NCBI RefSeq assembly: GCF_013122565.1
Contig: NZ_CP053258.1
Direction: 5' to 3' (one strand)
DNA: 64,000 nucleotides
From: Escherichia coli
Lineage (GTDB): Bacteria; Pseudomonadota; Gammaproteobacteria; Enterobacterales; Enterobacteriaceae
Shown here: positions 11,983-58,436 of the stretch, piece by piece
How positions within the stretch are numbered: the stretch's first letter is position 1
Layout: each line of letters starts with the position of its first letter
Program-made: the position numbers and the translations under genes
Notes under the pieces: generated by a model
Database searches by the model: none
What the model was told of the DNA's origin: nothing
Seen by the model: only the letters and a program-made list of their open reading frames with translations

Positions 11983-12013
11983 ATAAAAAACCGGAAATAG
12001 TCACTATTTCCGG
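11983..12013 (-). terminator. Rho-independent terminator downstream of pta
   Basis: Hairpin CCGGAAATAG/CTATTTCCGG followed on the minus strand by a U-run. Confidence 0.6.
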
Positions 12014-12053
12014 TTCCGATATCCGCAGCGCAAAGCTGCGGATGATGACGAGA

Positions 12054-23241: not shown

Positions 23242-23285
23242 TCGACGAACCATAGATAATTCCTGGAACAATAGTGTAAAAACGA

Positions 23286-23323
23286 GCCGCTGGGGGTGTT
23301 TTATACCCCAGCGGCTTTTTTTT
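23286..23323 (+). terminator. Rho-independent terminator after lrhA
   Basis: Hairpin GCCGCTGGGG ... CCCCAGCGGC followed by eight T. Confidence 0.7.
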
Positions 23324-23870
23324 AGTAAAAATCCTTCCTCGCATAGTGCAGAACGTACAAAACTGTTCATTTTTCAATCACCAGAGATTCACACCCCGTA
23401 CGCACAAATAATCGCTTGAAAAAAATCACCTGCTACAATGATGTTAAAAAATACGTAAATTTGTTGCTGCGTTTTTGTTATGGAATGACAAAAGCGTGTC
23501 ACAGATCAAGAAAATACTCTCTTTTGGGGGGAGGAATCGACACAAATTCCTGTCAAAATAGACCCGTATTTTTTCCATTGCTTCACAACGGACACGATTC
23601 AACAACATCTAATTATCCTGGAGTCGTCAAGGATCTGGGATGAAAGGGCATTAAATGCTAATGCTGTTGATATTATGTAAACTAATGTGAAGAAACTTTT
23701 GTTAAAGTTGACAAAAGGTTATAGAAAGGAGTAAAAGACCACATCAATTAGCTGTATAAAAGAGTTTCTACAGTAATTGTAAGGTTTTTTTTATTCCTCC
23801 CCATGAATCGATGTGGCGTCCATCTGCCGTGAAGAGCAGTGAATCTGGCGCTACTTTTGATGAGTAAGCA
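23324..23870 (+). promoter_or_regulatory. nuo operon promoter and leader region
   Basis: Long AT-rich non-coding region upstream of nuoA; this operon is known to have a complex multi-factor promoter. Confidence 0.55.
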
Positions 23871-28725: not shown

Positions 28726-28777
28726 CCGAATTTCGATTAACGCTCAGTCTCTGACTGAGAAAACTGGAAGCATGCTA

Positions 28778-50514: not shown

Positions 50515-51476
50515 TGCGTAGCGCGCAGGTATACCGCTGGCAGATCCCCATGGACGCGGGGGTGGTTCTGCGCGACAGGCGGTTAAAAACCCGCGACGGG
50601 CTGTACGTTTGCCTGCGTGAGGGCGAGCGCGAAGGGTGGGGGGAGATCTCCCCACTGCCGGGCTTCAGCCAGGAAACCTGGGAAGAGGCGCAAAGCGTGC
50701 TGCTTGCCTGGGTAAATAACTGGCTGGCAGGCGATTGCGAGCTACCGCAGATGCCTTCCGTGGCCTTTGGCGTAAGCTGTGCATTGGCAGAACTGACAGA
50801 TACTTTGCCGCAAGCAGCCAACTACCGTGCGGCACCGCTGTGTAATGGCGATCCGGACGATCTGATCCTCAAACTTGCCGATATGCCGGGCGAGAAAGTG
50901 GCGAAGGTCAAAGTGGGATTGTACGAAGCGGTGCGCGACGGCATGGTGGTGAATCTGTTGCTGGAGGCAATTCCGGATCTGCATTTGCGTCTTGACGCAA
51001 ATCGCGCCTGGACACCGCTGAAAGGTCAGCAGTTTGCCAAATACGTTAACCCGGATTATCGCGACCGCATCGCGTTTCTCGAAGAGCCGTGCAAAACCCG
51101 CGATGATTCGCGAGCGTTTGCCCGTGAAACCGGCATTGCCATTGCCTGGGATGAAAGCCTGCGCGAGCCGGATTTTGCCTTTGTGGCTGAAGAGGGCGTG
51201 CGCGCGGTAGTTATCAAACCCACGCTCACGGGCAGTCTGGAAAAAGTACGCGAGCAGGTACAGGCGGCGCACGCGCTGGGGCTGACGGCGGTGATCAGTT
51301 CTTCCATTGAATCGAGCTTAGGCTTAACGCAACTGGCGCGGATTGCCGCCTGGTTAACGCCGGACACCATTCCAGGGCTGGACACGCTGGATCTAATGCA
51401 GGCGCAGCAGGTACGTCGCTGGCCGGGTAGCACGCTGCCTGTCGTGGAAGTTGATGCACTGGAGCGGTTGTTATGA
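50514..51476 (+). CDS. menC: o-Succinylbenzoate synthase (320 aa)
   Basis: Enolase-superfamily protein; TAATG overlap with menB. Confidence 0.9.
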
Positions 51477-52828
51477 TCTTCTCTGACTGGCCGTGGCGTC
51501 ACTGGCGGCAAGTGCGGGGAGAAGCCATCGCCTTACGTCTTAATGACGAGCAACTCAACTGGCGCGAGCTTTGTGCTCGCGTCGATGAATTAGCCTCCGG
51601 ATTTGCGGTGCAGGGTGTGGTTGAGGGCAGCGGCGTGATGTTGCGGGCGTGGAATACGCCGCAAACGCTGCTCGCCTGGCTGGCGTTACTGCAATGCGGG
51701 GCGCGGGTGTTGCCCGTGAACCCTCAGCTGCCGCAACCGTTGCTTGAAGAATTGCTGCCCAATCTGACGCTGCAATTTGCGCTGGTGCCGGATGGGGAAA
51801 ACACGTTTCCGGCATTAACGTCGCTGCACATTCAGCGGGTTGAAGGCGCACATGCCGCTACGTGGCAGCCGACGCGTCTGTGCTCAATGACGTTGACCTC
51901 GGGTTCTACCGGGTTGCCGAAAGCCGCTGTCCATACTTATCAGGCCCATCTTGCCAGTGCCGAAGGGGTGTTATCGTTGATTCCGTTTGGCGATCACGAT
52001 GACTGGTTGCTCTCTTTACCGCTGTTTCACGTCTCCGGTCAGGGAATTATGTGGCGCTGGTTATACGCTGGTGCGCGGATGACGGTACGTGATAAACAAC
52101 CATTGGAGCAAATGCTGGCAGGCTGTACGCACGCTTCACTGGTGCCAACACAACTCTGGCGTTTGCTGGTTAACCGCAGTTCCGTTTCCCTGAAAGCGGT
52201 TTTACTTGGCGGCGCGGCGATCCCGGTCGAGTTGACGGAACAGGCGCGCGAGCAGGGGATTCGTTGCTTTTGCGGCTATGGTCTGACCGAGTTTGCCTCC
52301 ACGGTGTGTGCGAAAGAAGCCGACGGCCTGGCAGACGTTGGTTCGCCGCTGCCGGGTCGGGAAGTGAAAATCGTTAATAATGAAGTGTGGCTGCGGGCTG
52401 CCAGTATGGCAGAAGGTTACTGGCGTAACGGGCAACTGGTTTCACTGGTTAATGACGAAGGCTGGTACGCTACGCGCGATCGCGGTGAGATGCATAATGG
52501 CAAGCTGACCATTGTCGGACGTTTAGACAATCTATTCTTCAGTGGCGGAGAGGGTATTCAGCCGGAAGAAGTCGAGCGCGTAATTGCTGCACATCCTGCG
52601 GTTTTGCAGGTGTTTATCGTCCCCGTTGCCGACAAGGAGTTTGGTCATCGACCGGTGGCGGTGATGGAGTATGACCACGAGAGCGTTGATCTTAGTGAAT
52701 GGGTGAAAGATAAGCTGGCCCGTTTTCAGCAACCGGTGCGTTGGTTAACGTTGCCGCCTGAACTGAAAAACGGCGGTATTAAAATTTCACGTCAGGCGCT
52801 AAAAGAGTGGGTGCAACGTCAGCAATAA
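51473..52828 (+). CDS. menE: o-Succinylbenzoate-CoA ligase (451 aa)
   Basis: Adenylate-forming enzyme motif [10 protein letters not shown]; overlaps the menC stop. Confidence 0.9.
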
Positions 52829-52937
52829 TTAACCCTCCGTTTCACTTCTCATTTCAGCCATTCCATTGCCGTTGATAAAGAGTTTATCTGTTAATCTGTA
52901 AATTGATGTGAAAACTCTTAGCAAACAGGATAATGCA

Positions 52938-53204
52938 ATGGAATGGCTGGTCAAAAAATCGTGCTGCAATAAACAAGATAACAGACATGTACTTATGCTC
53001 TGCGATGCTGGCGGCGCGATAAAAATGATCGCCGAAGTGAAGAGTGACTTCGCCGTGAAAGTGGGGGATTTACTCTCACCTTTGCAGAATGCGCTTTACT
53101 GTATTAATCGTGAAAAGCTGCATACGGTGAAAGTCCTCTCTGCAAGCTGTTATAGCCCCGATGAGTGGGAACGGCAGTGTAAAGTGGCAGGGAAAACTCA
53201 GTAA
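52938..53204 (+). CDS. pmrD: Signal-transduction connector protein PmrD (88 aa)
   Basis: MEWLVKKS... recognised as PmrD; located between menE and the arn operon. Confidence 0.85.
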
Positions 53205-53584
53205 CGTTGTTTTGTCGTGGGCAGGAAAATCAACATCAACCCGCTCATAATACAGGCTACTCCCAGTAGTGCTTTCAGCGAAAAAGTCCCTTCCCAGCCG
53301 GGAAGTACCATTGAAGCAATCCATACCAGCACATAACTCATACTGAGCAAGGCATAGGCTTTGCTTAGCGCAAGTTTATGTAGCGTTTTATACCAACAAA
53401 AAACGGAAAGCAGATAACCCAGCAGCCCGAGTAACAGTATCCGGGCATCCAGCCCAAAAGCTAACAGCGCCGCGATAAAATCCCATAAGTGCGTCATCGG
53501 CGGCAGATGACTCGCCGCAAAACCCAGGCTTAACTGCGCAGCTGAGGCGATAATGACGCTGAATAATCCCCACATCAGGCCCAT
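53198..53584 (-). CDS. arnF: Undecaprenyl-phosphate-L-Ara4N flippase subunit ArnF (128 aa)
   Basis: Small four-helix membrane protein; start overlaps the arnE stop. Confidence 0.85.
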
Positions 53585-53919
53585 TACACCGTACTCCCGA
53601 GGATCACAATGCCGCCAATAATGAACGCTACCCCACACCAGTGACGCAGCGATACCGGCTCGTGCCACAGTTTTACTGCAGCCAGCGTCACCCAGACAAA
53701 ATTCAGACTTAACATCGGGTAGGCAATGCCTACCGGTACGTTCTGCAAGACCAGCAGCCAGAGCACCATGGCAAGGCCAAGACAAGCCAGCGCCAGTCCC
53801 AGCCACAGCACGATATGTTTGCGCCGTTTGTTTATCGCCACAAAGCAGGTTGCCTGTTTCTGACACAACTGCCCGGCAACGCTAAGCAAGCTGGCAAAGA
53901 CTAATGTTAGCCAGATCAT
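53584..53919 (-). CDS. arnE: Undecaprenyl-phosphate-L-Ara4N flippase subunit ArnE (111 aa)
   Basis: Small membrane protein; overlaps the arnT stop. Confidence 0.85.
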
Positions 53920-55568
53920 TTGGGACGATACTGAATCAGCACCAGACGCTCCTGACGATCGATGGCATCTGCGGGCGGAATGGCGAGACTGTTGATATCT
54001 TCATCGCGTTCAACCGAAAGCACGAGTGTAATAATCCCCTCCTGACGGTGTTGATTAAGCCAGTTTGCGAACTCATCACCGCTGACAAATCTCCCTTTCG
54101 CATCCGGATAATTAAGGCCGTATTTCAACTCACCTGTCTGGCGATACATGATGATGTCATCGCGTTGCAGGCTCCATGCCAGACCTGCGGCAACACCGAC
54201 GCTATCAGTAAGAATATAGCGGCTTGGCTGAAGTGATTCTTGTGTCATCTCGACAAAAAATTGCGGATGTTTTCCTTCCATGACTCTGTCAGGAATTGAA
54301 AATCCTACCAGCAACGCCAGCCCCAGCGGGCAAAGCGCGGCAAAAGACCAGGTCTTTTCGACGTTTGTTAAGGTGTACCAGCCGAAAAATGCCCATAGCG
54401 AAAAAATCGACCAGGCACAAAAGACTTTATAGCTCTCGAAGGTTTGCCACACCGGCGTGTTCATTGGTCCCCAGGGGGAGACCACAAATGTGGCAATAAT
54501 GCCAGTGACGCCAAAAGCGATGTTAATCCAGCCATTAATCCGCAGCGCCAGAGGATTATTTTTTGCTGCCAGCAAAGCGTAATGCGCCAACAGCATTGCC
54601 AGAGGTGCAAAGCAAGAAAGAATATAGGTGGGCAATTTGCCTTTAGCGACGGAGAAAAACAGCAGCGGCATTATCGTCCAGCTCAACAAATAGACGGTTG
54701 CGGAATGCTTGCGGTTTTTCCAGCCTGTGTACAGTGCACCGGGGAGTAATCCCAGCCACGGCAGGCTACCGGCAATGATGACCGGCACGTAGTACCAGAA
54801 CGGAGCTCTATGTTGGGCATCATCCAGTGCAAAGCGTTGAATATGCTCAACCCAGAAAAAATAGTGCCAGAAGTCAGGCTCCCGCTGCGCTATAGCCAGT
54901 CCCCAGGGGAGAACCGTCAGTACGCAACTGATAACCGCCAGCCAGCCGTAAATAAAGAGATCTTTCCAGCGTTTTTGCGTCGCTACCCATGGCAGCACGC
55001 TTAATACCGGCACGGCAAGGGCGAGAAAACCTTTGGTCATCACCCCCATGCCGCAGGTGATTCCCAGCAGTAAAAATCCTGCGCTTTTGCCTTTCCACGT
55101 CTGTGCCTGCATTGCCAGCCAGAAGCTGCACATTCCCGCCACCAGCCAGAATGCAATAAACGGATCGAGCACGGCATAAGTGCCGATGGCATAGACAATA
55201 AACAATGAGAGATAAATTACTGTGGCGAGTAGAGCCAGACGTTTATCGCGCCATAAGCGCAGAGTAAACCAGGTCACCAGCGCGGCAGTTAACAGGGTCG
55301 CAAAGATAACGCCTGCCCGCACACCAAAGTTATTCGCGCCAAATAGCCATTGCCCAATGCTGTTAATCCAGTATCCGGCAATGGGTTTTTCGAAATAACG
55401 TAGCCCTAACAGATGGGGCACAATCCAGTCGCCGGATGCCAGCATTTCCCGACTGATTTCCGCATAACGCGTTTCATCGGGTTGCCAGAGCAGTCGCGTG
55501 CTGATCGGTAACAGGTAATAGCAGGCAATAAACGCGAAGAGGCCGATAAGGTAACGTACCGATTTCAT
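53916..55568 (-). CDS. arnT: Lipid A 4-amino-4-deoxy-L-arabinose transferase ArnT (550 aa)
   Basis: Polytopic glycosyltransferase recognised as ArnT. Confidence 0.9.
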
Positions 55569-56458
55569 CAGCGACTACCCGCAATTTGTTGGCAACCCAG
55601 CCAGCCTTCACGTCCGGCAATATTTCCGCGAACAACTTGTCCGAGCGGCAACGTCCCTGATAACAGTTCGCTTAAAGGGCAAAATGTCACGCCTTCCTGA
55701 GCTGCGCGTTTGAGGAGATCCACAAAATTATGCTGATAAGCGCAGCCTTCAACTTCGGCATGAATGGTATAAACCGGCGTGCCTTTATCTCGCAGGATGC
55801 GGTTGAGTAACCAACCGTTAAAATCTTCTGCTTTCACATCCCGACCAATCACTTCATCCCAGGTGGGTAAGGTCACCGGAATTTGCGCAGTGCCAGGGTT
55901 TCCTGATTCGAGCAGTGGACGGAACGGCATGGCCCCACGACAATCGCTGTTGTAGCGCAAATGGAACGCTTCTTTTGCTTCGATCACCTGCTGGTCGGCA
56001 CGCCAGCCCGCAGCGGCAGAACAGGTTACCGGTTGACCGATAATCTCTTCCAGAGTGCGAAGGCCGCGTGCAATATCGTCGATCATTGTTTGCCGATCCC
56101 AGTTACCGCTACGGGCTTGCCAGGCATGGTGATCCCAGGCGTGCAGGCCGACTTCGTGATGTTTAGCCGCTTCACGAATGATATCGGCATTGGCATGACC
56201 AATCTCTTTACCTGGCCAGGCCGTACCTGCCAGTAAAATATCCCAGCCATAAAGCGATGCCGCGTTTGAGCGCAGCATCTTCCACAAAAACTGTGGCTTC
56301 ACCAGTCGCCAGAGATGGCGGCCCATATTGTCCGGGCCGACGCTGAAAAAAATGCTGGCCTGAATATTATGCTTACTCAAGATTTCCAGCAGACGCGGCA
56401 CGCCTTCACGGGTGCCACGAAAGGTATCGACATCAATGCGTAAGCCTACTTTGGTCAT
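55568..56458 (-). CDS. arnD: Undecaprenyl-phosphate-L-Ara4FN deformylase ArnD (296 aa)
   Basis: Polysaccharide-deacetylase-like sequence; ATGA overlaps at both ends. Confidence 0.9.
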
Positions 56459-58436
56459 GATGGTTTATCCGTAAGATCAACGGTGCGCAGGAAGAAATCC
56501 AGCGTTTCGTCGATGGTTTCCTGCATATCAATTTTCGGCTCCCAGTCCAGGCAGCGGTGGGCATTGCGGATGCTCGGTTTACGATGCTCTACGTCCTGAT
56601 ATCCTTTTCCGTAGTAGCTGCTACTTTCGACAACGCGAAAGCCCGCAAACGGTGGGAAATGATGGCGCAGCGGATGTTTTTCGAAGCTCGCCAGCAGCAT
56701 CTCGCCCAGTTCCTCAATGCTCGCTTCGTTCTCAGGATTGCCAATGTTGATAATTTCGCCGTCGCAGCGATTTCCCGCATTTTCGATAATGCGGTATAAC
56801 GCCTCGATACCATCGCGAATATCAGTAAAGCAGCGTTTTTGTTTTCCGCCATCAATCAGCTTAATCGGTGAACCTTCTACCAGATTGAGAATGAGTTGCG
56901 TAATCGCGCGGGAGCTGCCAATTCGCGCTGCATTAAGGTTATCCAGTCGTGGTCCCATCCAGTTAAACGGGCGGAAGAGGGTGAACTGTAAACCCTCTTT
57001 TTCGCCATAGGCCCAGATAACCCGATCAAGTAATTGTTTTGACACCGAATAAATCCAGCGTGGTTTATTCACCGGGCCGACGATTAAATTAGAATGGTCC
57101 TCATCGAAGTATTTATCGCTACACATCCCATAAACTTCTGAAGTTGATGGGAAGATGATTCGCTTACGGTACTTCACGCAGTAGCGGATAATGCGCAGAT
57201 TCTCTTCAAAATCGAGTTCAAATACGCGCAGCGGGTTGCGGGTATATTCAATCGGCGTGGCTATCGCCACCAGCGGCAAGACGACATCACATTTTTTGAC
57301 GTGATACTCAATCCATTCGGAATGAATACTGATATCGCCTTCGACAAAGTGAAAATGCGGATGATTCAGAAAACGGCTTATCGCATCGCTGCCAATATCC
57401 AGACCGTAAACTTCATAATGATCTTCGCGCAGCAGGCGTTCTGTCAGATGGTTGCCAATAAAGCCATTTACCCCGAGGATGAGTACCCGGGTACGGCGTC
57501 GGGCGGCACAGGCAGGCTGGCTATTCAAGCGTGAACCTTGCACCAGGCCCAGCGTCTGCGCTAATTGCGAGCCCTGCATAGTAATGCCGTCGCCCGCCTG
57601 TCCGGTGACGATTTCCAGCGCGCCATCGCCACAGGCAATCAGCAGTGGCGCAACAGAAATCACGCTCCCCGGCTGCGCTGCGGATGTATGAGGATGTACG
57701 CGTGACGACCAGACGGTGAATTTCTGATTGCCAGCATAGCTGAAGGCACCCGGCCACGGATCGGCAACGGCGCGGACCATGTTATGCAATACGGCTGCCG
57801 GTTTGTGCCACTCGAGGAAGCTATCTTCTGGTGCTCTGCGACCAAAACAGGTGGCTTCGTTCTCGCGTTGGGCGATTTCCAGAATATTAACGTGTTTAAT
57901 GGCGGGTAATGTCTGTTCCAGTAGCTGGCGCGCGGCATGGCACAATTTATGATGCAGCGTAATAGCGATATCGTCTGGCGCAATGGCAATGCGCAGTTGC
58001 GCCACAATGGCCCCGGCATCGGCACGTGTCACCATTCGGTGCAATGTAACGCCCGTTTCCGTTTCACCGTTCACCAGCACCCAGTTCAGCGGCGCGCGAC
58101 CACGATATTTTGGTAACAGCGAACCATGCAGATTAAATGCACCTGCGGGAGCGAGCTGCAAAATTTCGTCGCAAATAAGATGGCGATAATAAAAAGAGAA
58201 AATCACATCTGGCGACAGTTGGGCAATGCGTTCCACCCACAGCGGATGATTAACGTCATCCGGCGCATAAACCGGAATGCCTCTTTCCGCCGCCAGACGA
58301 GCCACCGAACCATAAAAGGCTTTTTCACCGGGATTATCGGTATGGGTAAAAATGGCGCTAATTTCGTAACCGGCAGCCAGCAGGGCTTCAATACCGAGGC
58401 ATCCCATATCGTGGTAGGCAAAAACGACGGTTTTCA

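Follow-up and report, generated by a model that had tools for sequence, protein, structure and literature searches.

The 7-bp convergent overlap of pmrD and arnF in Escherichia coli: probably incidental compaction rather than a regulatory device

The pathway leading from PhoP/PhoQ through PmrD and PmrA/PmrB to the arn operon is among the best-studied two-component connector circuits. In E. coli the gene for the connector, pmrD, and the terminal gene of the arn operon, arnF, lie tail to tail on opposite strands, and their stop regions overlap. The question raised by this arrangement is whether the shared end couples expression of the connector to that of the operon, through transcriptional interference or antisense pairing, as a preliminary description of the locus had proposed, or whether it is an incidental product of tight gene packing. 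It is considered here using a 64,000-nucleotide stretch of an E. coli genome (the window), the equivalent junctions of related genera, and published work.

Geometry, occurrence and variation of the junction

The coding sequence of pmrD (52938-53204, plus strand) begins with the ATG at 52938, ends with the TAA at 53202-53204, and encodes the 88-residue PhoP/PhoQ-PmrA/PmrB connector protein. That of arnF (53198-53584, minus strand) begins with the ATG at 53584-53582 and ends with a TGA that reads as TCA on the plus strand at 53198-53200; it encodes a 128-residue subunit of the undecaprenyl-phosphate-L-Ara4N flippase and is the last gene of arnBCADTEF. Direct reading of the sequence and the open reading frame listing agree on a tail-to-tail overlap of 7 bp, TCAGTAA, which occupies 53198-53204 of both strands. 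The plus strand reads GGG AAA ACT CAG TAA at 53190-53204 and the 3' end of arnF reads CAA CGT TAC TGA; in pmrD the overlap begins at the final base of codon T87 and runs through codon Q88 to the stop TAA, and in arnF it begins at the third base of codon R127 and runs through codon Y128 to the stop TGA.

An artefact of annotation, in which either reading frame has been wrongly called and the genes do not truly overlap, is scarcely credible and is refuted by the sequence. The 3' ends are set by unambiguous stop codons, so the choice of start codon cannot create the overlap, and both proteins match curated NCBIfam equivalog models, PmrD at 176.9 bits (NF011994, cut-off 96) and ArnF at 139.6 bits (NF002816, cut-off 99). 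PmrD is, moreover, identical at 87 of its 88 residues to the K-12 protein of solved structure (2JSO/4HN7), which has exactly the same length. The gene identities, end coordinates and 7-bp figure of the preliminary description are all borne out by these data. The Pfam PmrD domain covers only residues 1-82 of 88, and the ArnF profile match stops at residue 122 of 128, the last six residues (TTKQRY) lying outside it; as judged from these profile boundaries, the overlapping codons are non-conserved C-terminal tails in both proteins.

The pmrD/arnF region was found in 5419 of 5426 complete E. coli genomes. Five E. coli genomes were inspected, namely K-12 J53, two further strains, the strain whose junction sequence diverges most (89.5%) and one in the middle of the range (96.1%), and in each of them RefSeq annotates the identical overlap of 7 bp. 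Over 24 kb, no complete E. coli genome is more than 98.4% identical to the window, which therefore represents an E. coli-group lineage outside that collection. Six convergent pairs are present in the surrounding 41 kb, of which only pmrD/arnF overlaps, the other five being separated by 38-272 bp. In E. coli as a whole, 663 adjacent gene pairs overlap, 75 of them convergently, and such overlaps have been ascribed to the movement of stop codons (Huvet and Stumpf 2014, PMC4161906; see also PairWise Neighbours, PMC2716372). The pmrD/arnF pair resembles this class in consisting of bona fide genes on opposite strands that share a few 3' bases, in having dispensable tails, and in varying among relatives; we see no substantive difference from the class, of which it is a typical member, one of the 75 in E. 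coli. The overlap is thus a minority arrangement, but an ordinary and well described one, and is statistically unremarkable.

Data on relatives came from a PmrD alignment, a one-genome-per-species scan and contig look-ups for further PmrD proteins; a peptide-pattern scan and two protein searches reached Escherichia, Salmonella, Citrobacter and Intestinirhabdus, and returned no Klebsiella or Enterobacter junctions. Two genuine genes on opposite strands that share at least one base, stops included, constitute a convergent overlapping pair, and by this definition the overlap is kept in E. coli, in E. albertii (7 bp, TCAGTAG) and in Salmonella enterica, including subsp. diarizonae (6 bp, the palindrome TCATGA). 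The Citrobacter junctions instead have short gaps, of 3 and 9 bp in the C. amalonaticus group and of 2 bp in C. freundii-like sequence. The C-terminal tails of PmrD and ArnF vary in both length and sequence among genera. Within E. coli the junction has 4-6 polymorphic sites per 50 nt, and it differs from that of E. albertii at 13 positions per 50 nt. In the eight Escherichia sequences compared, its divergence is at or above the regional average, and against E. albertii it ranks with the more diverged segments; the comparison gave no excess conservation of the kind that would signal a second function. These observations point to a spacer-free junction that probably predates the split of Escherichia, Salmonella and Citrobacter, with stop codons that drift within dispensable tails.

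Some lineages depart from this arrangement. Most of the arn operon is gone from Escherichia sp. MOD1-EC7003 and from strain SCPM-O-B-8794, in which pmrD is kept together with a 3' remnant of arnF; the remnant encodes residues 39-128 in the former (L005, 3264-3533) and residues 107-128 in the latter (L006, 3254-3319). The latter lineage also carries a 10-nt deletion at the junction, which has rewritten the tail of PmrD (90 residues, ending NNVVLQ) and produced a 23-bp overlap with the arnF remnant. In the type-strain assembly of Salmonella enterica subsp. arizonae (L012, 3256-3626), arnF matches occur in three frames and arnE is partial, suggesting either a decaying arn operon or errors of assembly. 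In Intestinirhabdus alba (L016, 2501-2758), pmrD lies directly 3' of menE with no adjoining arn operon; because this species keeps pmrD after menE without arn, the linkage of pmrD to the men cluster is, on the gene orders compared, more stable than that to arn.

Transcript ends and termination across the junction

That the transcripts must overlap at their 3' ends, as had been claimed, follows for every mRNA that includes its own stop; because the stop regions overlap by 7 bp, complete pmrD and arn mRNAs are complementary over at least 7 nt. Transcript ends lying upstream of the overlap on both strands, which had been put forward as an observation that would refute this claim, would imply mRNAs lacking stop codons and are therefore a weak yardstick. 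The claim is strengthened by the terminator-free sequence on both strands of the junction and by the listing of arnF-pmrD among the excludons of E. coli MG1655 (PMC12288877). Literature searches returned no report of 3'-end mapping (Term-seq) for the pmrD locus, and nothing locus-specific on RNA antisense to arnF or on a pmrD/pmrM terminator.

Terminator scans covered 52500-54000 and 49000-58000. No hairpin followed by a U-tract was found 3' of either stop in the right orientation, i.e. on the plus strand as far as 58000 and on the minus strand from 53198 to 49000, and the eight terminator-like matches in 49000-58000 compare with 9.6 expected, a chance level. A textbook intrinsic terminator is present elsewhere in the window, at 23277-23324. 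An Rfam search of 52300-54000 at E ≤ 1 returned nothing beyond one meaningless lncRNA match. It may be asked whether a bidirectional intrinsic terminator shared by the two genes is hidden within their coding ends, such that the transcript overlap is short and defined. The ExcludonFinder paper (Sanmartin et al., NAR 2025, PMC12288877) gives some encouragement to this idea, since 146 of the 165 E. coli convergent excludons have a terminator predicted inside the transcription unit of the neighbour, and a terminator-like hairpin does exist on the minus strand at 53305-53290. The latter, however, lies inside arnF, about 90 nt before its stop, where termination would truncate the gene; it was rejected as a terminator and is read as a chance occurrence, the ArnF sequence across it being different in Salmonella. 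A G+C-rich hairpin with an A-tract and a U-tract near both 3' ends was not found, and on neither strand does the RNA around the junction fold more stably than shuffled sequence (z 0.77, and -0.68 for the minus strand). With no hairpin-plus-U-tract site beyond either stop and matches at chance frequency, we regard a hidden shared terminator as very improbable.

Composition instead suggests that Rho may end both transcripts. The first part of the pmrD read-through RNA (53205-53335, plus strand), antisense to the 3' end of arnF, is a candidate Rho loading region, with a C/G ratio of 1.8-1.9 in 78-nt windows from +27 to +130 (at or above the 95th percentile for the window) and a GC skew of -0.17 to -0.25. 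The corresponding start of the arn read-through RNA (52990-53197, minus strand), antisense to pmrD, is a second candidate, with C/G ratios of 1.56 over its initial 78 nt and 1.80 between +131 and +208. Within 130 nt of both stops, C/G is 1.5-1.9, at or above the 90th-95th percentile for the window (median 1.0), in a context where RNA antisense to coding sequence is generally C-rich, and the case for Rho is weak for that reason. Rho-dependent termination inside the opposite gene would be the likely fate of both transcripts.

A further source of convergent transcription may lie upstream. The last gene of the men cluster, menE (51473-52828, plus strand; NF006539), is co-directional with pmrD and separated from it by 109 bp (52829-52937), and the terminator scans gave no terminator-like site in this spacer. 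Because none is present there, transcription of the men cluster may run into pmrD and then antisense to arnF, so adding to that from the PhoP-dependent promoter. On the other side, arnF follows arnE (53584-53919, minus strand; NF011625, 210.9 bits), the stop of which shares one base with the arnF start (TAATG), and arnT (53916-55568, minus strand; NF009784, 811.7 bits), which lies upstream in the operon and overlaps arnE by four bases; both are typical translational-coupling junctions inside an operon.

The overlap of transcripts is also reported elsewhere. In the ExcludonFinder paper arnF-pmrD is one of the 165 convergent excludons listed for MG1655, and is named as a pair whose members serve a single pathway. 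An excludon is called there when transcript ends, as defined by coverage, overlap in 50% or more of the 58 RNA-seq samples; for convergent pairs, validation of double-stranded RNA with p19 is stated not to be feasible. That entry concerns the same pair and makes the same claim as the preliminary description (convergence, a shared pathway, overlapping transcription and proposed interference). It differs in resting on RNA-seq coverage thresholds and not on overlap of the coding sequences, in its strain, which belongs to a different E. coli lineage from the window, and in that the text offers no analysis of the locus, no 3' ends and no functional test. Such a call is almost guaranteed, indeed near-automatic, for any two overlapping coding sequences. 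The overlap is thus real, ordinary and already known, both from public annotation and from the published catalogue, and the idea of coupling is not new in that the transcript overlap has been published.

An inverted repeat around the pmrD promoter

A repeat search showed the pmrD promoter to be enclosed by an inverted repeat (52855-52949), perfect over 15 nt, with arms at 52855-52869 (CAGCCATTCCATTGC) and 52935-52949 (GCAATGGAATGGCTG) that are 65 nt apart. The right arm spans the pmrD ATG and codons 2-4, while the left arm lies 27 nt past the menE stop and abuts a putative PhoP box (52869-52887, plus strand; CCGTTGATAAAGAGTTTAT), which was aligned to the footprinted Salmonella box CTATTGCCGTTTTGTTTAT. 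No other perfect inverted repeat of at least 13 nt in the 64-kb window has a long spacer. RNA folds of the stem are more stable than those of shuffled sequences (z -4.7 on the plus strand, -3.7 on the minus strand, and -3.3 for the Salmonella equivalent). In an alignment of 14 sequences drawn from five genera, pairing holds in 85% of cells, compared with 26-43% when the partner columns are slid. Escherichia and Salmonella both conserve the stem, and the latter has one compensatory pair, in which G-C is replaced by A-U via a synonymous Leu change; pairing is weaker in Citrobacter and Intestinirhabdus. The hairpin was rejected as a terminator, there being no U-tract 3' of the stem on either strand. 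No report of a pmrD promoter hairpin was found in the literature or Rfam.

In Salmonella, pmrD is known to have a PhoP box, a -10 hexamer and a 27-nt leader (PMC3335776). By homology, the -10 element in the window would be TAAATT at 52899-52904 and transcription would start near 52910, placing the PhoP-dependent start inside the hairpin loop. Because the start would lie in the loop, the stem is expected to form only in RNA that begins upstream, by menE read-through, or in RNA from the opposite strand, by arn read-through. It is plausible that in read-through RNA from menE the stem could hide the pmrD start codon, so silencing translation.

The regulation of this promoter is reported to differ between the two genera. 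In Salmonella, phosphorylated PmrA binds the pmrD promoter and represses pmrD, a loop that is described as absent in E. coli (PMC3140997; PMC3335776). Just upstream of the left hairpin arm, the Salmonella sequence (L014, about 2400-2416) has ATTAAT-GTTAG-GTTAAT, which resembles the reported pmrD-repressing PmrA box; the E. coli sequence aligned to it is without these repeats.

Other structured elements were seen elsewhere in the window. Two further perfect palindromes, which may be operator-like or terminator-like, are present at 42491-42524 (15 nt, 4-nt loop) and 11989-12015 (13 nt, 1-nt gap). The only Rfam match at gathering level in the window is the nuoG cis-regulatory RNA motif at 28728-28770 (50.3 bits), which fits the nuo operon upstream of the pmrD/arnF locus.

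Compaction, feedback and what the overlap implies

The reading we favour, and consider probable, is that the overlap reflects incidental compaction of the genome, accompanied by an obligatory, Rho-limited overlap of transcripts and at most weak interference. On this account pmrD is packed, with no spacer, into the interval from menE to the end of the arn operon, and nothing, in particular no intrinsic terminator, would need space between the two stops. Because the interval would need to hold nothing, the stops could have drifted in dispensable tails, to give the 7 bp of Escherichia, the 6 bp of Salmonella and the few-base gap of Citrobacter. A polymerase that passes the end of either gene would make untranslated, C-rich and G-poor antisense RNA and would probably be stopped by Rho inside the opposite gene. 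The complementary stretch of the pmrD and arn mRNAs would probably amount to tens to hundreds of nucleotides, a long stretch being probable because a hairpin-plus-U-tract terminator is absent nearby. Some mutual dampening could follow, with arn transcription lowering pmrD, and read-through from pmrD or men lowering arnF; this would be a side effect of the layout, likely weak, and not the reason for the overlap.

That the overlap couples expression of pmrD to that of arn, whether through interference or through antisense pairing, as had been proposed, is plausible but unproven. In its strongest form the convergent layout would be a selected regulatory device giving negative feedback on the connector: arn read-through driven by phosphorylated PmrA would be antisense to pmrD and would act through collision of polymerases, or through duplex formation and cleavage by RNase III, and conversely pmrD transcription driven by PhoP would trim the operon-distal arnF. 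The best argument for function is that the spacer-free layout persists in three genera (Escherichia, Salmonella and Citrobacter), which could mean that it is selected, and which counts against an incidental origin. So too do the shared pathway of the two genes and the classification of the pair as an excludon by RNA-seq (PMC12288877), together with the lack of a terminator separating them. Negative feedback by PmrA on pmrD is, moreover, useful in Salmonella, where it acts by promoter binding (PMC3140997; PMC3335776), and antisense feedback would have the same outcome as that loop (Kato, Latifi and Groisman 2003, as recounted in those sources), i.e. an active PmrA regulon lowering pmrD, although the mechanism in Salmonella is binding of phosphorylated PmrA at the pmrD promoter and not convergent transcription. 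Salmonella, however, has this direct repression and yet retains the same layout, and it would be wasteful to reduce arnF relative to arnE, its partner. The excludon call is of the near-automatic kind and, in PMC12288877, convergent pairs are without p19 validation. Our literature searches found no expression data showing reciprocal behaviour of pmrD and arnF, and no report of a regulatory effect of the overlap. The best arguments against selection of the overlap itself are that its length varies among genera, that the tails are non-conserved and dispensable, and that conservation at the junction is ordinary; these argue against a selected geometry, and we consider a selected feedback device possible but distinctly less likely than compaction.

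The inverted repeat allows a more elaborate proposal, in which the pmrD locus would act as a convergent module that is insulated. In this scheme arn read-through would provide RNA antisense to the full length of pmrD, and so the feedback that Salmonella obtains via its PmrA box, which could help to explain why a spacer-free layout has been kept in three genera. The start-codon hairpin would keep men read-through translationally silent and hence open to termination by Rho. The PhoP promoter would then be the sole source of PmrD, and arnF would be spared constitutive antisense transcription. Taken as a whole, we regard this scheme as unlikely.

In the classical excludons of Listeria, and in lexA/sbrB of Staphylococcus aureus, read-through generates a long RNA antisense to an oppositely oriented neighbour, and both reciprocal expression and dependence on RNase III have been demonstrated experimentally. 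The pmrD/arnF locus is like these systems in its layout for antisense read-through, and differs from them in that its own coupling is as yet only proposed.

On present evidence, the overlap of pmrD and arnF is a routine consequence of tight gene packing. It carries two practical cautions, since deletions or insertions at the 3' end of either gene also alter the other, and strand-blind measurements of expression at the junction mix both transcripts. If coupling were nonetheless true, it would add feedback at the RNA level to the PhoP/PhoQ-PmrD-PmrA/PmrB-arn circuit, which governs resistance to polymyxin and colistin.
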